The translations under genes and the position numbers were made by a program. From positions 310,593-374,592 of the forward strand of contig JBARXA010000016.1 in assembly GCA_049647085.1 (NCBI GenBank): a stretch of DNA of 64,000 nucleotides. The letters are read 5' to 3'. Positions 6,388-40,200 of this stretch are shown one piece after another. Position 1 is the stretch's first letter, and every line of letters begins with the position of its first letter. A model generated the notes under the pieces. It saw only the letters and a program-made list of their open reading frames with translations, searched no databases and was not told the origin of the DNA. The DNA is from Candidatus Humimicrobiia bacterium (GTDB lineage: Bacteria > Actinomycetota > Humimicrobiia > JAHJRV01).

Positions 6388-8382
6388 TTAATCATCTTTA
6401 TGACATACTTTACTTTTTGTAGATCTGTTTTTTAGTTCTAAGTCAATTTCTTTTAGGAATTTCTCAATTGGGATTGGTCCTAAGTCTAATTCTGATCTAC
6501 ATCTTACCGCCACACAATTTGTGCTAACCTCTTTATCTCCAATAACCAACATATATGGAATTTTCGTAACCTGTGCATCTCTAATTTTTTTGCTAACAGT
6601 TTCCATCCTGTCATCTAAATCAACTCTTACACCTATTTTTTGTAAATAATCCATTACTTTTAAAGAAAAGTTTTTATGTTCATCAGTAATTGGAATTAAT
6701 ATAACTTGAACAGGTGCAAGCCAGACTGGAAAAGCTCCCTTATAGTGTTCAACTAATATACCAAAAAATCTCTCAATGCTTCCTAATATAGTTCGATGAA
6801 TCATAACTGGGCGATGTTTTGCGTTATCCTCTCCAGTATAATGTAGATCAAAAGCTTCAGGCATGGCAAAATCAAGCTGAATAGTTCCACACTGCCAGGA
6901 TCTTCCTAATTTATCAAATATGTGAAAATCTATCTTTGGACCATAGAACGCACCTTCACCAGGATTTATTGTATATTCAACACCTTTATGGTCTAATGCA
7001 TCCTTTAGTGCTGATTCTGCTCTTTCCCATATATCCAAAGAACCCATATAATCATCTGGGCGAGTTGAAAGCTCTATTTTATATTCCTTAAATCCAAATT
7101 TATCATAAATATAAATTACAAAATCTATTGTCTCTATTAATTGCTGTTCAATTTGAGAAGGTAAACAGAAAATGTGAGCATCATCCTGAGTAAAACCTCT
7201 TACTCTAAACAGACCGTGAAGAACTCCTGACAATTCATATCTATGAACGATCCCCAACTCAGCCCATTTTAAAGGCATATCTTTGTATGAACGGGGTTTA
7301 GTTCTGTAAATTAATACACCTCCTGGACAATTCATTGGCTTTACAGCAAATTCTCTACCACTTTTCTCTAAAAAATACATAAGTTCTTTGTAATGATCCC
7401 AGTGACCAGACATCTGCCAAAGATTTTTATCTAAAAGTATTGGAGTTCCTACTTGCTCATATCCCCTTTTTAAAAGTTCTTCTTTCAGGAAATCTAATAT
7501 ACTGTTTATAATAATCATTCCTTTGGGATGAAAAAATGGAAAACCGGGTCCTTCTTTATGAAAACTGTATAAATCAAGTTCTTTACCTAATTTTCTATGG
7601 TCTATCTTTTTTGCTTCCTCTATTTTTTGTAAATGTTTTTCCAATTCTTCTTGAGTAGTAAATGCAGTTCCATATATTCTCTGAAGCATAGGATTCCTTT
7701 CGTCACCTCTCCAATACGCTCCAGCTATACTTAACAGCTTAAAAACCTTTACCTTTCCCGTTGATGGTAGATGTGGTCCCCTACAGAGGTCTATAAAATC
7801 ACCCTGTTCATATAAACTTACAATATCTTCCTTAATATCATCTATTAAATGCTGTTTATAAGTTTCACTGGAAAAAATTTTTTTTGCTTCTTCCTTGTTG
7901 ACTTCTTTTCTTATTATTGAGATATCTTTTTTCACAATCTCCTCCATTCTTTTTTCAATTTTTTCTAAATCTTCAGGTATAAAAGGTTTTTGAGGATCAA
8001 AATCATAGTAGAAACCATTTTTTATTGTTGGACCTATAGCTATTTTAACTCCAGGAAAAAGTTCATATACTGCATTCGCCATAACATGAGCTGTAGTATG
8101 TCTTAAAATGTTTAATCCATCCTCATCTTTATATGTAACTGGTTTTAAGACTGCATTTTCTGTTATTATGTGAGATAAATCCAATAATTTATCATTTATC
8201 CTTATAGCTACAACTTCATCGATGTTTGGTATATCAAATGACTCTAAAACCTCAATTGCACCCACATTCTTATGAAATTTTTTAACATTGTCTGGAGAAA
8301 TTTTTATTTCTATTAACTCATCATTTTTACATTTATCTGAATTATTGTTTGCTTTCATCTTCTTATATCCCCTCATAACCAA
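6388..8382 (-). CDS. thrS: threonine--tRNA ligase
   Basis: 664 aa with TGS, editing and class II core domains. The track start at 8382 is a TTG; the ATG at 8356-8358 preceded by AGGGGA is the more likely start. Confidence 0.93.
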   Translation of the reverse strand: MVMRGYKKMKANNNSDKCKNDELIEIKISPDNVKKFHKNVGAIEVLESFDIPNIDEVVAIRINDKLLDLSHIITENAVLKPVTYKDEDGLNILRHTTAHVMANAVYELFPGVKIAIGPTIKNGFYYDFDPQKPFIPEDLEKIEKRMEEIVKKDISIIRKEVNKEEAKKIFSSETYKQHLIDDIKEDIVSLYEQGDFIDLCRGPHLPSTGKVKVFKLLSIAGAYWRGDERNPMLQRIYGTAFTTQEELEKHLQKIEEAKKIDHRKLGKELDLYSFHKEGPGFPFFHPKGMIIINSILDFLKEELLKRGYEQVGTPILLDKNLWQMSGHWDHYKELMYFLEKSGREFAVKPMNCPGGVLIYRTKPRSYKDMPLKWAELGIVHRYELSGVLHGLFRVRGFTQDDAHIFCLPSQIEQQLIETIDFVIYIYDKFGFKEYKIELSTRPDDYMGSLDIWERAESALKDALDHKGVEYTINPGEGAFYGPKIDFHIFDKLGRSWQCGTIQLDFAMPEAFDLHYTGEDNAKHRPVMIHRTILGSIERFFGILVEHYKGAFPVWLAPVQVILIPITDEHKNFSLKVMDYLQKIGVRVDLDDRMETVSKKIRDAQVTKIPYMLVIGDKEVSTNCVAVRCRSELDLGPIPIEKFLKEIDLELKNRSTKSKVCHKDD

Positions 8383-8818
8383 TATTTAAATATTATTTAT
8401 TTGAACTATTTAAGAGATGTGTTTGCAACTCTTAATCTTTTTAAAAATATTCGTACATTGAAAACTAAAAATGATTAACAAGTTTTACTTTTTGTTTTAT
8501 TTAGAAGTTTGTTTATATGTTTTGTTTATAAATAATACCAAATTAGATGAATTATAAACAAGTTAAATTAACACTTTGTTTATTGTTCTTTATTTTTTCA
8601 ACCTAGCCTTAGCTTCACTAAGAGTAAGTTTTATCTTATCCCCGTTAAGAGGAAGGAAAGGAAATTTAAAATCAATAATTCACCAAAAGAAGGTGAAAAT
8701 TTTAATTAACAATCTATTATAATATACTCGGATTTTTTTATATTATAATGTATTAAGTTATTACTAAAAAAATTATTAAATACTAATTAACTAGATTAAA
8801 AAATATTGTGAAACTAAA

Positions 8819-9964
8819 TTGGAAAATAATTATTATGTTTTAGGTATAGATGAGGCAGGATATGGACCAGATATTGGTCCACTTGTTGTAACATCTTCAC
8901 TTTTTAGACTTAGTGAAAAATATCATTCAGAGAAATTTTGGGAGACTCTTTCTGAAATAGTCTCAAAAAAAACAAAAGAATTTCCAGAAAAAGTAATAGT
9001 TTCAGATAGTAAAGATATATTTAAAAATCATCCAAAAAATTATTTAATAGGTGAAACTACTACTTTGTGTTCTTACTGTCTCTTATATCCTGTGCCACTT
9101 AATTTTCAAGAATTCCTACAAAATATATTCTTAGATAACTTAGATTTATTTCAAAAAAGATGCAAAACTTTTAGCAAATACACATATAGAATGTGTTGGG
9201 GTAATAATGATTTTTTTTCTGAAGATCCTTTAAATTCTAAAAATTTAAATCCAAAACCCTATATTAATGATTTATTCCCAAAACTAAAAAAAGTTATAAA
9301 AAGTTCAGGAATTGATTTAATAGATATAAAAAGTATAGTTTTATGTCCACATTTATATAATAAATCAATTACTAAAAAAAGGAAGCTTTTTTTAAATTAC
9401 TTACAATTTGAGAGATTAATAGAAAATGCTTTAAAAAGGATTTTGATAAAAAATATTTCAGTTAAAGATAAAGAAGAGACAGAAAAGTTAGAAAAAAAAT
9501 ATAAAAAAGAAACTATAAATTTTAAAAAGAATGAGCAAAAGAATAATTTAAATTCAATTTTTGTAATTGCTGATAAGCTTGGATCAAAAAAATATTATAT
9601 TAATTATCTTAAAAGTGGATTGCTTGGAAATTTCAAAATAAAAATTTTGGAACAAAACAGAAATATATCTTCTTATGAGCTATCAAATAGTTTGGCAGTA
9701 AGAATATCATTTATAAAGGAAGGTGACAAAACCCACTTCCCCATTGCTTTATCTTCTGTTTTTTCAAAATACATTCGAGAGAGGTTTATTAAAAATATAA
9801 ATGAATTCTTTGCAACAAAAATTCAAAATTTAAAACCAACAAAGGGGTATGCATATAAAATAGAAAAATTTATTGAAGTTACAAATGATGTAAGAAAAAA
9901 ATATGATATTGCTACAAATTGTTTTTTAAGAAAAAGGGATAGTCTCTTGCGCTTATTTGATTAA
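8819..9964 (+). CDS. RNase HII-like protein with a large internal Lys/Asn-rich insertion
   Basis: N-terminal VLGIDEAGYGP and VSDSKDIF match RNase HII catalytic motifs; IFVIADKLGSK and GDKTHFPIALSSVFSK match the later motifs. About 180 aa of low-complexity sequence separates them. TTG start in the ORF track, no clear RBS. Confidence 0.45.
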   Translation: MENNYYVLGIDEAGYGPDIGPLVVTSSLFRLSEKYHSEKFWETLSEIVSKKTKEFPEKVIVSDSKDIFKNHPKNYLIGETTTLCSYCLLYPVPLNFQEFLQNIFLDNLDLFQKRCKTFSKYTYRMCWGNNDFFSEDPLNSKNLNPKPYINDLFPKLKKVIKSSGIDLIDIKSIVLCPHLYNKSITKKRKLFLNYLQFERLIENALKRILIKNISVKDKEETEKLEKKYKKETINFKKNEQKNNLNSIFVIADKLGSKKYYINYLKSGLLGNFKIKILEQNRNISSYELSNSLAVRISFIKEGDKTHFPIALSSVFSKYIRERFIKNINEFFATKIQNLKPTKGYAYKIEKFIEVTNDVRKKYDIATNCFLRKRDSLLRLFD

Positions 9965-24024: not shown

Positions 24025-24519
24025 ATGAAAAGAGTAATTGATTTAAGAAACTTTATAGATAATATAGAAAATCAATTAATTAAAGGAAGAGGAAAGTGGA
24101 TTGCGGAGTTCAATGAATCATTTATAAACTATTCACTTGATAATTTTGTTTTTCCATTAGTTGTTAGAGGACAAACAAGAAGTAAAGGTTTTTTACTCTC
24201 GAGATTTTTTGCTTACTTTGCCATGCCAAACTATTTGGTGTCATGCTTTGTATATCCCTCAGAAATAAATTCATATCTAAAAAAAGAGAAACTAAAAATA
24301 TTACTTATAGAGATATCTAAAATGATGAAGAAGAACAATGTAAAATGGTCCTGGCTTATCATCCCAAAAGAGGGTGAATTTAATCAAAGAATAATAAAGT
24401 GGGTTGAAAAAAATGACCTTTCTAATATTGGTATTGCTTTAGTAAACTTAAATACTAAAAATATTTTAACTAATAATTCAGTTATAGGAAGAAAAATAAA
24501 AACTATTTTAAAATTCTAA
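24025..24519 (+). CDS. hypothetical protein
   Basis: 164-aa ORF; its stop overlaps the start of the next gene (ATGA). Confidence 0.4.
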   Translation: MKRVIDLRNFIDNIENQLIKGRGKWIAEFNESFINYSLDNFVFPLVVRGQTRSKGFLLSRFFAYFAMPNYLVSCFVYPSEINSYLKKEKLKILLIEISKMMKKNNVKWSWLIIPKEGEFNQRIIKWVEKNDLSNIGIALVNLNTKNILTNNSVIGRKIKTILKF

Positions 24520-24950
24520 TGAAGAAAATATCAAAAATAAATTTTGGAGACTTAGGTAAATCATTCTCTATCTTTTTTATTCTTATAGTGACATTACGGA
24601 TTATTACAAATTTCTTATTCACAAAGATTATAATCGTAGAGTGGTGGATTTTAACAATAGAGCTAATTTTAGCTGCTATTGTATCCTATTTGTATTATAG
24701 ACTTAAATATCACCCCACCTTTAGTTATGACAAAGAAAGTTTAATTTTAGAAATTGGTAAGGAAAAAATATCCTCAAAATGGAAAGATTTTAAATTTATC
24801 TCTTTGTATTATAGCGGTTTAGGGAAAACTTCTTTAAGATTATATATAAACGATATCTATAAAGATGATTATATTGAAATCCCAGTCTCTGATTTAGGAC
24901 TTTCTCCAAAAGAATTTAGAGAAGAAGTTTCGAAATTAATTTCAATATAA
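24519..24950 (+). CDS. hypothetical membrane protein (2 predicted TM helices plus soluble C-terminal domain)
   Basis: 143 aa; hydrophobic stretches at about residues 15-35 and 40-60; translationally coupled to the upstream ORF. Confidence 0.4.
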   Translation: MKKISKINFGDLGKSFSIFFILIVTLRIITNFLFTKIIIVEWWILTIELILAAIVSYLYYRLKYHPTFSYDKESLILEIGKEKISSKWKDFKFISLYYSGLGKTSLRLYINDIYKDDYIEIPVSDLGLSPKEFREEVSKLISI

Positions 24951-25901: not shown

Positions 25902-26669
25902 TTACCTCCCCACTTCTTCAACTTCTTTATACCATTTTTTCTTTATACCAACCTTAGACCTTATTTTCCATTTCAGGCTTTTAGGTTCACCTTCTATTCT
26001 TTCAAGTATTTTATCAATTCTATCTGCAACTATTTTTCCATTTTCATCCGTCAGAGATTCAAATTCACCAAGGAAATCTTTAACTTTTTTAAGGTTGGTC
26101 GTCACTGTATAATAATACCCCCAATCTTTTGATAAGAGCTTAGATATATAGTTCATGTTTACTGTTTCTTCTTCCTTATCTCCAACATCATGCTCGAGTA
26201 GCATTATAATAGTATCTTTGATATCCTTTGGATTTATCTCTACTATCTGCATCTTTTCTAATAATATATCAGTTAGAGTGATGGTAGGGTCATCCAATTC
26301 CAATCTATTTCTAAAATCAACCTTATGGCACATATCTAACTCATTAAAAAAGATATCTACTTGCCAACCTTTTTCATCACTCCAGTAGATTTGTCTTTTT
26401 TTACCATATAATGCAAAAAATCTTGGATTTATTGGTTCATAACCTAAGTCTTTAAAAAACTCTCTCATTCCTTCTCTAAACTTTCCATATGTCATTAAAT
26501 CTATATCAGTAAGTGGTCTCTTCATTTCATCATATAGATACCTATATTTTGGACTATGATTTTTTACTGCAATTGAACCCAATAATCTAAAAATTATCCC
26601 TTTTTCTTTGCCTTTTTCAATTATCTTAAATGCTTCTTCAACAAAAGCTTTGTCTCTTTCAGGATCCAT
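25902..26669 (-). CDS. hypothetical protein, possible nucleotidyltransferase fold
   Basis: LLGS...LTDIDL followed by QVDIFF resembles the GS/DxD/D pattern of Pol-beta-type nucleotidyltransferases, but the spacing is atypical. 2-nt gap to the downstream phosphoesterase. Confidence 0.35.
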   Translation of the reverse strand: MDPERDKAFVEEAFKIIEKGKEKGIIFRLLGSIAVKNHSPKYRYLYDEMKRPLTDIDLMTYGKFREGMREFFKDLGYEPINPRFFALYGKKRQIYWSDEKGWQVDIFFNELDMCHKVDFRNRLELDDPTITLTDILLEKMQIVEINPKDIKDTIIMLLEHDVGDKEEETVNMNYISKLLSKDWGYYYTVTTNLKKVKDFLGEFESLTDENGKIVADRIDKILERIEGEPKSLKWKIRSKVGIKKKWYKEVEEVGR

Positions 26670-29730: not shown

Positions 29731-31560
29731 TTAAATAATTTGAGACCAATATAAAATTATAGTTAGAAATCCATCAGTAAATATAAAAATTATAAAGGCT
29801 ACTATTAGGGATTTTGCTTCAGATTTCTTTAGATATATAAATAATGTAGCTAAACTAACAAGAAAAATTATTATAGGTAATGTCCAAATCCAAATACTAA
29901 TAAATTCAGCAGGAATTAAATCTAAAAATGGTGGAAATAATAGATATGAAGGTGTAATTAGTAGTTTTGCTAAATAATATAAAATTATTGTAACAATTAA
30001 AACTATCTTTGTTTTTCCTAAATTAAGACTATCTTCCCCTCCCGTAACTATATAAAATATCCCTATCAAAATAAGTGAGACAAGTCCCCAGGGAATCACT
30101 AACAAGATGAATATAGATGCACCAAATAAATGAAATATAGTATCAGTTATCCCAATAACTATATCTATAGGAGTTAAAAAATCAAGATTTTTTCTTATAT
30201 CTGATGAAGTACCAGCAAAAAATACTTTATGTTGACCCACTTTTAATTTATCAAGCCATGTTAAATAAATGTTGTTATCCTTATCAATCAAAATTTTAGG
30301 TGAAAACGAAAAATGGTCAGTTTTATTTGTTAGTTGATAACCTAATGGTTCACCATCTCTATAAACAACTAATGCTAATTGCATTTTTCCTTTGTTTTTT
30401 TCAAAAACTTTTAAATCACAAACTAATAATAATTTTGACCTTTGTCCTACTGATACACCTGGCATACTTACATAATCTGTAGAGGGAAACCCTGTAAAAA
30501 TATCTTCTGGTATTAGAGAAATACTGTCAACTTTTCCTCTTTCTTTATCTTTTTGCTCTTGAGTAAAATCAATTTTCCTTTCTCCTATCTGAAGAGAATC
30601 TGTTTTTGATAAATATGGTAAGCTTATTCTTTTTGATGATTGAAATGATGGTTTATTTATAGGAAATGTTAAATAACTTATGTGTGCACTTCCAGCAGAT
30701 AAACCAGACCTGAATTCAGTTGACCAAAAAACATAGACATAATTATTATCTAATCCAATTATAGGTTCAGAGAGAACTTTTCCAGTACTAATAACAAAAT
30801 CTCCAACTTTTACTTTTTCTTCTAATTTGCTTTTTTTAACATCAAAAGTTGAATAATATATATCATTTCTATCGCCAAGTATAGATTGAAGCCAAATCAA
30901 ATGGATATTTCCCAACTTATCTATTTGAAAACTTGGTGATTTTCCTTCAGATATTATTAGACTATTTTCTGATGTAATATCACCTTTGCTATTTAGTTGG
31001 GTATAATAAATTCCTTTCTGGTCTTTCTCTTCACCTTCCCAAAAAATTTCAACATTTCCGCCCTTGTTTAACCCAATTTTATAATTTTTAACTTCTGATT
31101 CAGCAATTGAAATTAATTTAGGTTCAGTTAATTTATCACCATTAGAATCCAGTAGAATGTGAAATAAACATGTATTATCTTGATACTTATCTAACCATGT
31201 AAGATATAGATTTTTATGACTATCTAATAAAATCTGTGAATTTTTGGGGTTAACAAAATTAAAATCAAGAAATTTTTGTAATAATATATCTGCTTTACTG
31301 TTTAATTTAGTAAAATTTAAAAGTCTTTTATCAGCTTTTTTAGCGCTCCAAATCAGATATAAATTTTTATCTTCATTATCAATCTGAATTGAGACTGGAA
31401 TACCTGAAATTGTTTTACCTAAGTTCTTCCCACGACTCCAATCCAATGAAATTTTTTTACTTAGTGGTGAAGTGATGTTTAATCTTGCAAAAATAACAAT
31501 TATGATAACAATTGCTAAGATGATTATGTAAGGTAAGTATTTTTTTAACCTTTTATTCAT
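29731..31560 (-). CDS. hypothetical membrane protein: N-terminal anchor, repeat-containing extracytoplasmic domain, C-terminal polytopic domain
   Basis: 609 aa; recurring NLYLIW / NLYLTWLD / NIHLIWLQ / YVYVFWST / NIYLTWLD motifs suggest a beta-propeller-like repeat domain; 4-5 TM helices at the C-terminus. Confidence 0.45.
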   Translation of the reverse strand: MNKRLKKYLPYIIILAIVIIIVIFARLNITSPLSKKISLDWSRGKNLGKTISGIPVSIQIDNEDKNLYLIWSAKKADKRLLNFTKLNSKADILLQKFLDFNFVNPKNSQILLDSHKNLYLTWLDKYQDNTCLFHILLDSNGDKLTEPKLISIAESEVKNYKIGLNKGGNVEIFWEGEEKDQKGIYYTQLNSKGDITSENSLIISEGKSPSFQIDKLGNIHLIWLQSILGDRNDIYYSTFDVKKSKLEEKVKVGDFVISTGKVLSEPIIGLDNNYVYVFWSTEFRSGLSAGSAHISYLTFPINKPSFQSSKRISLPYLSKTDSLQIGERKIDFTQEQKDKERGKVDSISLIPEDIFTGFPSTDYVSMPGVSVGQRSKLLLVCDLKVFEKNKGKMQLALVVYRDGEPLGYQLTNKTDHFSFSPKILIDKDNNIYLTWLDKLKVGQHKVFFAGTSSDIRKNLDFLTPIDIVIGITDTIFHLFGASIFILLVIPWGLVSLILIGIFYIVTGGEDSLNLGKTKIVLIVTIILYYLAKLLITPSYLLFPPFLDLIPAEFISIWIWTLPIIIFLVSLATLFIYLKKSEAKSLIVAFIIFIFTDGFLTIILYWSQII

Positions 31561-38535: not shown

Positions 38536-40200
38536 TTAATCAAGTTCTTTCAGTCTTTTATACGCAACAGTGCCACCATTACCTGCTTCATAAACTGTTT
38601 TGAAATTTTCCTTATATTTTTCAATTATCGGGTACACATACTTCATAAACCGTTCATTTGTTTTATCCTGTATTATAAAATCAGATTTATTCAAATACTT
38701 TTTTTGTTTTTGTTCATCATCACTATATGGAAATGATATCGTCTCTCTATTAGTTATAATATAAACTAAGAAATTACTCCTGCTAAGTATTGAACTGCCA
38801 TCATAAGAATTTTCCTTTAACCAATACATTGCATCATAGAAATTCTCCCATGATTTACCATATATAAATTTTTTATTATTTTTATAATCAAGACTCTTAT
38901 TTATTACTAAATATCCACCATAGATACTTCCAGTTAAAAATATAATAAAAGTTAGTATTAAAACTGTTGATGCAAATATTTTAATTATTTTTTTTGTTGA
39001 AATTTTTAGTATTATCTCTTTAAAAAACAAGACCCCACTTGAAAAAAGAATGATTAAAATAGGAATTACGCAAACCGTAAGTCTTTCTGATTGCCATGGC
39101 CACATATGAAGACCGATAAAATAAAGTATTAAATATATTGTATAAATATATTTCTTCTTTTTCAAGAAATAAATAATTCCTAAAATAACTAAGATTATAG
39201 AAAGTAAAATTGCAATAAAATATAAATCTTTAATTTTTAATATTTCAAAAAAATTTGAAATATTCCCTTTTAAAATATCTTTTAAGCCATTTGTCAGTTG
39301 CGAAAAAACTGCTTTAAAATAATAATCGAAATTTGATTTTGCTCTTTCAAAAAATTTTATAAAATCTATATTTCCTTCGGAATAGTCACTGAGATTGACC
39401 TTGAAAAACTCACTTACATAGCTAACTTTATTTGAAATCATTGCTCTTAAGTTCCACAAAATAACTGGTACTAATGTAAATACAAAATAAATTCCTGATC
39501 TAATTTTGTTCTCACTTAAAAAGATTTGTATAAATATTGCAAGGATGATGAAAATACCAATTGGTCTGATTAAAAATGTAAATATTGAAAAAAATATCAA
39601 TAAAATAAAATTAAGATTGAGATGCTTTTTTATTCTCTCAAATAAATTATTTTTATCCTCAGAATGTTTGTCATTGTCATCCTGAGCATAGCGAAGGATC
39701 TCAAAATTAAGATTTAACCTACTACTTTCATTCTCAGAATAATTACTCTTACTATTGTTTAAGTATTTAATATTACTTTCTTCGCTAATCTCTCTATAAT
39801 TTAAGTTATAAAAATATAAAGTGATAAGAAGAAAAAGATTATATACAGTCTCTGTCATTACTTTTGATGAGAAACTTAGAAGTTCAGGATGAGTTATAAA
39901 AAAAATTGATGCCAGCAATAAAGTTAATCTATCCAGATCCTTTTTTGCTACAAGATAGAAAAATAATACTGAAAGAATAAAACATGAAACTACAATTATT
40001 TTAGATACTATTAAAATATTTGATTCAATAAATTTAGAACCTAAAATAAAATAAAAAAATGATAATATAAGTGGAAAACCTGGATATGCCTTGTAATCAG
40101 GAGGATTTTCTGGATAATTTATTAATTTAAATCCAATTCCTTGAGAAATGGATTTTCCAAGTATCATATATCTTGCATTATCACCAAAACAAGATAACAC
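38536..40200 (-). CDS. glycosyltransferase family 39/83-like membrane protein (ArnT/PMT-like); 5' end uncertain
   Basis: Polytopic membrane protein with a DNARY-type motif near the N-terminus. A predicted TM helix lies in frame upstream of the track ATG with no ATG; contains an in-frame repeat-family insert. Confidence 0.55.
   Translation of the reverse strand: MLSCFGDNARYMILGKSISQGIGFKLINYPENPPDYKAYPGFPLILSFFYFILGSKFIESNILIVSKIIVVSCFILSVLFFYLVAKKDLDRLTLLLASIFFITHPELLSFSSKVMTETVYNLFLLITLYFYNLNYREISEESNIKYLNNSKSNYSENESSRLNLNFEILRYAQDDNDKHSEDKNNLFERIKKHLNLNFILLIFFSIFTFLIRPIGIFIILAIFIQIFLSENKIRSGIYFVFTLVPVILWNLRAMISNKVSYVSEFFKVNLSDYSEGNIDFIKFFERAKSNFDYYFKAVFSQLTNGLKDILKGNISNFFEILKIKDLYFIAILLSIILVILGIIYFLKKKKYIYTIYLILYFIGLHMWPWQSERLTVCVIPILIILFSSGVLFFKEIILKISTKKIIKIFASTVLILTFIIFLTGSIYGGYLVINKSLDYKNNKKFIYGKSWENFYDAMYWLKENSYDGSSILSRSNFLVYIITNRETISFPYSDDEQKQKKYLNKSDFIIQDKTNERFMKYVYPIIEKYKENFKTVYEAGNGGTVAYKRLKELD
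39670..39702. repeat. repeat-family unit inserted in-frame within the glycosyltransferase CDS
   Basis: GTCATTGTCATCCTGAGCATAGCGAAGGATCTC; 33 nt, encodes EILRYAQDDND in a low-complexity loop. Confidence 0.5.

Follow-up and report, generated by a model that had tools for sequence, protein, structure and literature searches.

A gene beside thrS in a Humimicrobiia bacterium encodes a member of a predicted type 2 RNase H family that shares features with, and departs from, both RNase HII and RNase HIII

Ribonucleotide excision repair (RER) is taken to start with RNase HII, an enzyme regarded as almost universal. A 2026 review describes RNase HII as reading the RNA-DNA junction through a GRG motif, to which the review calls the arginine essential, together with an invariant tyrosine; RNase HIII has neither of the two and, without that arginine, is unable to recognise junctions at single ribonucleotides (rNMPs) precisely (PMC13492167). 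Here we compare with these enzymes the product of a gene found in a 64,000-nucleotide stretch of DNA from a Candidatus Humimicrobiia bacterium (contig JBARXA010000016.1, positions 310,593 to 374,592; hereafter the window, with all coordinates counted from its first letter). The gene, 8819..9964 on the plus strand, is a complete open reading frame (ORF) of 381 amino acids with a TTG start and a TAA stop, and a prediction made earlier from the letters alone had taken it for an RNase HII-like protein with a low-complexity insertion of ~180 residues. Judging from its sequence and its modelled structure, we put at roughly 60% the probability that its product is a type 2 RNase H, functional and of low abundance, which has a two-metal DEDD core, belongs to a distinct family and stands in for RNase HII.

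Structure prediction, which the original prediction had proposed as a check, recovered an RNase H type 2 fold. The AlphaFold2 model, built from a 24-sequence alignment, has a predicted local distance difference test score (pLDDT) of 80 and a predicted template modelling score (pTM) of 0.85, with low confidence limited to residues 130-137, residues 214-243 and the last four residues. In the fold-comparison table, whose figures carry no unit, the model scores 15.3 with both Geobacillus stearothermophilus RNase HIII and Thermovibrio ammonificans RNase H3 with substrate, 14.8 with Thermococcus kodakarensis RNase HII, 14.0 with human RNase H2A, 12.6 with Aquifex aeolicus RNase HIII, 12.4 with Escherichia coli RNase HII and 11.1 with Staphylococcus aureus RNase HII. 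When a profile of the family was compared with PDB sequences, the best matches were archaeal and eukaryotic (1EKE, 2.9e-9; 3PUF, 4.9e-9), and the alignment to human RNase H2A pairs D11 with D34, E12 with E35, D252 with D141, D303 with D169 and Y344 with Y210. The profile columns concerned read GiDEaG (for the D and the E), vDkhGG (D252), Ge/Dxxh-lP (303) and taGY (Y344), and the lysine of DSK aligns with the human protein as well. The four carboxylates, this lysine and the junction tyrosine thus all support an RNase H-fold reading; the carboxylates match those of H2A, and by sequence alignment and global structural similarity they would be expected to superimpose. The motifs named at the outset are in place, namely GIDEAG (residues 9-14) and DSK (63-65) near the N-terminus and IADK (250-253), GDK (302-304) and ALSSVFSK (310-317) further along.

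Set beside RNase HII and H2A proteins (1IO2 of T. kodakarensis, 1EKE of Methanocaldococcus jannaschii, 3O3F of Thermotoga maritima and human 3PUF), the protein shares the DEDD residues and DSK, and it aligns with them in the S-x-x-x-K-x-x-R-[DE] helix and in the tyrosine of the G-Y junction. Unlike them, it has G-[Y/F/L]-G in place of GRG: across the alignment of 226 family sequences in which residue conservation was counted, position 15 is tyrosine in 178, leucine in 33, phenylalanine in 14 and valine in one, and no member carries an arginine there. The family is further set apart from RNase HII by ~95 added residues, to which the window protein contributes ~50 more that are lineage-specific, and by invariant residues of its own (N181, K189, GG-R, Y260, S284 and Y286). 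Counted as invariant outside the canonical motifs are N181, K189, G255, Y260, S284, Y286, F298 and N328, whereas S313, K317, R320 and E321 are near-invariant.

The profile scores tell the same two-sided story. The Pfam model PF01351 (RNase_HII) matches at 31.8 bits, against a gathering threshold of 25.8, through an N-terminal stretch (residues 8-26) and a C-terminal one only, and its borderline scores for the relatives run from 25.5 to 39.7 bits. Against the NCBIfam RNase HII equivalogs (TIGR00729, NF000594-NF000600 and NF010537) the protein reaches 11-29 bits where the cut-offs are 123-364; the best of the nine matches scores 28.6 against a cut-off of 167, all nine lie far below their cut-offs, and the same holds for five relatives. 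With a tyrosine at the position of the GRG arginine and NCBIfam scores this far under the cut-offs, it does not qualify as canonical RNase HII.

With RNase HIII (2D0A of G. stearothermophilus, 4PY5 of T. ammonificans) it has in common the missing central arginine of GRG and a length of ~300 amino acids. The extra length of RNase HIII is an N-terminal TBP-like domain, whereas that of the family lies inside the catalytic domain; in the window protein GIDEAG begins at residue 9 and the model contains no such domain. The junction tyrosine that RNase HIII lacks is invariant in the family. The RNase HIII model TIGR00716 gave no match to the window protein and 16.7-19.1 bits for the relatives, against a cut-off of 161.2. 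In terms of sequence features, the family is therefore a third combination, in which the GRG arginine is gone and the junction tyrosine is kept: a type 2 RNase H that is neither RNase HII nor RNase HIII by the features that define them.

The window protein finds its place as a member among planctomycete proteins of ~320 amino acids such as WP_146432665.1 of Blastopirellula retiformator (E 1e-30 to 1e-10 over 96% of its length). It keeps all residues that are invariant in the family and is 21-33% identical to the planctomycete sequences aligned. It differs from them in being ~60 residues longer (at 126-142, at 208-243 and in an 8-residue C-terminal tail) and in its host, which belongs to an Actinomycetota lineage and not to Planctomycetota.

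ORF 8819..9964 is a real, conserved gene under purifying selection. The order thrS (minus strand), the gene (plus strand), a HAD hydrolase gene and kamE (both minus strand) is kept on three other Humimicrobiia metagenome contigs, kamD being next on two of these while the third breaks off after kamE; the three syntenic orthologs are 87%, 75% and 59% identical. Ratios of non-synonymous to synonymous substitution rates (dN/dS), calculated by the Nei-Gojobori method, are 0.23-0.27 for the whole gene with its insertions included, 0.14-0.22 for the helical insertion common to the family and 0.19-0.28 for the pooled lineage-specific low-complexity parts (residues 126-142 and 208-243), indicating purifying selection even there, with 0.10-0.16 for thrS and the HAD gene. 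Synteny, the kept TTG and these ratios imply that the gene is translated and constrained, if less tightly than its neighbours. They also decide against a non-functional ORF, whether arisen by chance, in decay as a pseudogene or recently inserted from a foreign source into an AT-rich gap, with which a low GC content (23.8% for the gene, 30.0% for the window, 30-34% for the adjoining genes), a strand opposite to that of the neighbours and a non-ATG start without a Shine-Dalgarno (SD) element would agree. Position, frame and TTG start are preserved down to 59% identity at a dN/dS of ~0.25, homologs number in the thousands and the structure model is confident; synteny and dN/dS effectively refute this reading, to which we give next to no credence. 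The low GC content could be explained by a composition rich in lysine, asparagine and isoleucine or by foreign origin; the nearest relatives belong to other phyla and are ≤40% identical.

The insertion of ~180 low-complexity residues as first described stands in part: a segment rich in lysine, glutamate and asparagine is there, confined to residues 208-243, and most of the remainder is predicted to be structured. Residues 66-243 have an entropy of 3.87 bits per residue against 3.95 for the whole protein, and between the supposedly distant motifs lie beta3 (165-175) and the helix that bears the invariant N181 and K189. We measured the extra length between anchors, taking medians over the 226 sequences for the family and, as the reference, a T. 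kodakarensis RNase HII sequence that was entered by hand. From DSK to the third aspartate the window protein has 187 residues and T. kodakarensis RNase HII 63, a difference of ~125, and the family typically has 137, so that ~75 of the extra residues are family-wide and ~50 lineage-specific. Anchor by anchor (window, family, T. kodakarensis), the spacings are 53, 53 and 34 for E12-K65; 116, 99 and 39 for K65-N181; 71, 38 and 24 for N181-D252; 51, 51 and 30 for D252-D303; and 41, 41 and 35 for D303-Y344, which assigns ~95 extra residues to the family as a whole.

These family-wide additions consist of a helical insertion after DSK (~60-80 residues), a hairpin at 273-289 (~20 residues) that precedes beta5 and carries the invariant S284 and Y286, and smaller extensions. 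Helices of the insertion span residues 73-86, 96-103, 108-116, 120-127 and 146-163, mostly at high pLDDT. Specific to Humimicrobiia are ~50 residues, ~17 of them around 126-142 and ~34 at 208-243; of the 36 residues in the latter segment 11 are lysine, 6 glutamate and 5 asparagine, and pLDDT falls below 50 over 214-243. The bulk of the extra sequence is, on the model, a conserved insertion predicted to be structured and not low-complexity filler. The extra length is not mainly a lineage-specific low-complexity expansion, as one of the two first readings had it; most of what is extra defines a large pre-existing family of proteins of ~320 amino acids. Ortholog lengths within Humimicrobiia vary (381, 400, 429 and 477 amino acids), with expansions at the same hot spots (window 9194-9244 and 9440-9547); the length-variable loci include L007:3104-4393 and L008:6001-7434. 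In one relative, P0013, ~55 residues are added between the third and fourth carboxylates, and these resemble tandem repeats of the N-x-x-I-S-S-Y-x-x-S hairpin bearing the invariant serine and tyrosine.

The family to which the protein belongs is large. An exhaustive HMMER search of 1.84 billion cluster representatives (50% identity) gave 2,017 matches at E ≤1e-3 and 949 at E ≤1e-10, those listed being nearly all of 300-340 amino acids, and a profile search found 5,357 clusters at 90% identity with E ≤1e-10 among the 8,000 candidates scored. Searching the species genomes of GTDB for the signature G[IVT]DE[AN]G[YF]GP yielded at least 600 stretches, of which 581 were confirmed, so at least 581 GTDB species genomes hold a relative. 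The best 80 of these stretches nearly all bear Planctomycetota labels (Planctomycetaceae, Pirellulales, Gemmatales, Singulisphaera and Phycisphaerae); among them Singulisphaera is the sole Isosphaerales label, and the cultured Botrimarina colliarenosi is included. The gene occurs, too, in anammox bacteria and in cultured Blastopirellula species, and Blastopirellula marina and other cultured species, though not Rhodopirellula baltica, are among the best 120 matches. Beyond Humimicrobiia, itself a class of Actinomycetota, the closest relatives belong to Candidatus Subteraquimicrobiales (Actinomycetota, class Aquicultoria) and to Terriglobia. Source databases mostly label the members "hypothetical protein", at times "ribonuclease H family protein" (RefSeq WP_146432665.1) or "ribonuclease HII" (JGI), and in the literature on Humimicrobiia and on Planctomycetota RNase H we found no description of the family. 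Its signature, read from the alignment, is GxDEAG[Y/F/L]GP, a helical insertion between DSK and beta3, DK-x-GGR at beta4, a hairpin before beta5 and T-x-G-Y. Two loci call for a remark of their own: one contig among the best 80 (CAXMSB010000310.1, L022) is binned as "uncultured Granulosicoccus sp." (Gammaproteobacteria) and is possibly mis-binned, and a different contig (L089; JGI 3300016457, Ga0186713_163793) has at its two ends identical copies, inverted to each other, of the family gene with its upstream ORF of 88 amino acids, an arrangement that is probably an assembly palindrome artefact.

Neighbouring genes differ by lineage and are of a housekeeping kind: his genes and asd in Scalindua, nrdR/nrdD and asd in another anammox genome, thrS in Humimicrobiia. 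A conserved operon partner was considered and rejected, the contexts being unlike one another in Scalindua, further anammox bacteria, one more metagenome contig and Humimicrobiia. When ORFs were clustered over 80 planctomycete loci, the sole recurrent neighbour was a downstream His_Phos_1 (SixA-like) ORF, in 20 of the 80; in the one locus inspected (L016) it encodes ~164 amino acids (L016:5950-6441) and is directly adjacent on the same strand. A role in anti-phage defence was likewise set aside, as the window protein has no PADLOC match and the housekeeping neighbourhoods are not conserved across lineages.

The conserved DEDD set, the DSK lysine and the junction tyrosine make a two-metal endonuclease acting on RNA/DNA hybrids the most likely function. 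D11, E12, D252 and D303 would bind two divalent metal ions, and the protein would probably cut 5' of single ribonucleotides embedded in DNA, as in RER, a prediction made because Y344 and the DSK lysine are kept; on such sequence grounds incision at single rNMPs is plausible. It may thereby take the place of RNase HII in those lineages in which canonical rnhB goes undetected, with the Humimicrobiia version adding ~50 fast-changing low-complexity residues at hot spots on what would be the surface. The weak translation signals of the gene (TTG, no SD) suggest low expression.

Several points weigh against a functional stand-in for RNase HII. The GRG arginine is replaced by tyrosine, phenylalanine or leucine throughout the family, and junction (RER) activity may thus be altered or lost. 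We regard as possible, though on balance unlikely, that we are dealing with an active nuclease of RNase H fold whose substrate preference is another and which coexists with a further RNase H and replaces none. The G-Y-G motif and the helical insertion would be the cause, and the enzyme might act, like RNase HIII, on longer RNA/DNA hybrids, R-loops or Okazaki primers and make no incision at single rNMPs, or it might attack a different nucleic-acid structure. The absence of the central arginine in 226 of 226 sequences, the failure of RNase HIII, likewise without it, at precise single-rNMP junctions (PMC13492167) and the many family-specific invariant residues outside the canonical motifs speak for such a shift. 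However, the junction tyrosine that RNase HIII has lost is invariant here, only 8 residues precede the GIDEAG region and leave no room for a TBP-like domain, and the helical insertion is not basic (median net charge 0) and so offers no obvious extra module for binding nucleic acids.

A further point against the proposed RNase HII-like enzyme is that the third carboxylate is lost in 22 of the 226 sequences (~10%; 21 Gly, 1 His), with D11, E12, D/E303, K65 and Y344 kept; the variants include P0086, P0088-P0092, P0028 and P0033, and the corresponding D252 codon of the window is 9572-9574. No compensating acidic column was found in the family alignment for the Asp-to-Gly variants, and this unexplained loss lowers confidence that the whole family uses canonical DEDD chemistry. 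In a rough neighbour-joining tree the Gly/His variants are polyphyletic and mixed with Asp forms in a sub-branch of ~31 tips that holds the Humimicrobiia clade. Constraint is also looser than expected from the surroundings, the dN/dS of the gene being roughly double that of the adjoining genes. Variants mixed with Asp forms in this very sub-branch, the relaxed constraint, and the TTG start without SD would all fit a catalytically dead or non-nuclease RNase HII derivative, a repurposed fold whose task would be to bind a nucleic acid or another protein. We nonetheless hold this to be improbable, in that all four carboxylates, D252 included, are retained by the window protein and by all 15 Humimicrobiia sequences, and that D11, E12 and an acidic residue at 303 are found in 226 of 226 sequences, Gly variants included, which argues for metal binding and catalysis.

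Finally, that rnhB is missing from Planctomycetota is a statement of two papers and not the outcome of our own search, which must also be held against a replacement of RNase HII by the family. A KO-based survey reports that Planctomycetota "largely lack" rnhB (PMC11929135). Kochiwa et al. 2007, in a PSI-BLAST and Pfam survey at E ≤1e-6, place the one planctomycete genome included in Group E, which from the Venn scheme appears to mean RNase HI only (PMC1950709). Within the 64 kb of the window, tblastn queries with RNase HII of E. coli and of T. kodakarensis and with RNase HI of E. coli (sequences entered by hand) found nothing else, and Pfam scans of ~43 other window ORFs revealed no RNase H gene. 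Our tentative suggestion is that the family may form a so far overlooked fourth class among the RNases H of prokaryotes and be the missing enzyme of RER or of primer removal in Planctomycetota and in some deep-branching Actinomycetota and Acidobacteriota.

Table 1. Features of the gene and its upstream region, in window coordinates; residue counts refer to the 226 aligned family sequences
Feature	Position	Strand	Remarks
ATATTATAAT, -10-like box, candidate promoter	8740..8749	+	~70 nt upstream of TTG
GIDEAGYGP (residues 9-17), predicted catalytic D11/E12; G-Y-G is the counterpart of GRG	8843..8869	+	D11, E12 in 226/226
DSK (residues 63-65)	9005..9013	+	D 223/226; S and K (K65) 226/226
Family-wide helical insertion, DSK to beta3 (residues 66-164)	9014..9310	+	126-142 partly Humimicrobiia-specific
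beta3 and the helices after it, RNase H core (residues 165-207)	9311..9439	+	N181 225/226, K189 226/226
Humimicrobiia-specific K/E/N-rich low-complexity segment (residues 208-243)	9440..9547	+	missing in >90% of family
beta4 with third predicted catalytic Asp, D252, in IADKLGS; family motif DK-x-GGR	9554..9586	+	D 204/226, G 21, H 1
Family-specific beta-hairpin and beta5 (residues 273-299)	9635..9715	+	strands 273-279, 283-289, 293-299; S284, Y286, F298 invariant
Fourth predicted catalytic acid, D303, in GDK, and helix ALSSVFSKYIRE (residues 302-321)	9722..9781	+	303: D 127/226, E 99/226
T-K-G-Y (residues 341-344), counterpart of the RNase HII GSGY junction tyrosine	9839..9850	+	Y344 225/226, G343 225/226

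The features of the gene and of its upstream region are collected in Table 1. Between the in-frame stop at 8792-8794 and GIDEAG (from codon 9), TTG 8819 is the sole ATG, GTG or TTG codon, and this start, as originally called, is kept in all four Humimicrobiia copies (the window and the three orthologous loci). The AT-rich upstream gap of 436 nt was likewise borne out (8383-8818, 19.7% GC), as was the lack of an SD, no SD-like element preceding the start in the window gene or in its orthologs; in a crude scan of the window, 21 of 46 listed ORF starts also had none, so that its absence is not exceptional. The statement that the gene is one of three on the plus strand holds approximately, there being four non-overlapped plus-strand ORFs of ≥100 amino acids and one tRNA. 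Within the box ATATTATAAT, the core ATATTAT is identical in the four orthologous intergenic regions, which are elsewhere poorly conserved, and it is on this conservation that we propose the box as a candidate promoter. A scan of the sequence for promoter consensus matches gave 13, where 14.0 were expected from shuffled sequence, and thus no enrichment. Between the box and thrS lies a hairpin (8679-8697, 6-bp stem) that looks terminator-like read from either strand. We rejected the idea that the gap holds a leader RNA such as a T-box, Rfam giving no above-threshold match over 8250-8900 and, as its best, a viral pseudoknot at a chance-level E of 0.064. The longest ORF of thrS begins at TTG 8382; an in-frame ATG at ~8355-8358, preceded by GAGGGG and in agreement with the N-termini (MK...) called in orthologs, is probably its true start, in which case the intergenic gap measures ~460 nt.

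As a whole the window covers part of the core chromosome, its genes including pheST, rplT, infC, thrS, gap-pgk-tpi, whiA, rapZ, uvrABC, rpsA, polA and dnaE. Five of its ORFs, of 143-609 amino acids, have no Pfam match at E ≤1e-5 (24025-24516 and 24519-24947 on the plus strand; 25905-26669, 29734-31560 and 38539-40200 on the minus strand), and the two on the plus strand are adjacent to each other within an otherwise minus-strand region.

Taken by itself, the window gene is a modest addition, one more member with an unusual host lineage and extra low-complexity expansions, and it is outweighed in interest by the question at the level of the family, that of a missing planctomycete RNase HII with a different junction sensor. 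The rnhB gap of Planctomycetota would be accounted for by a large, conserved family in housekeeping contexts whose type 2 active site is complete. If so, the aromatic residue of G-[Y/F/L]-G would provide a junction recognition unlike that of RNase HII and of RNase HIII. The uncharacterised family is also a natural experiment on two sites, the GRG sensor (Arg to Tyr, Phe or Leu) and the third carboxylate (Asp to Gly, ~10%).

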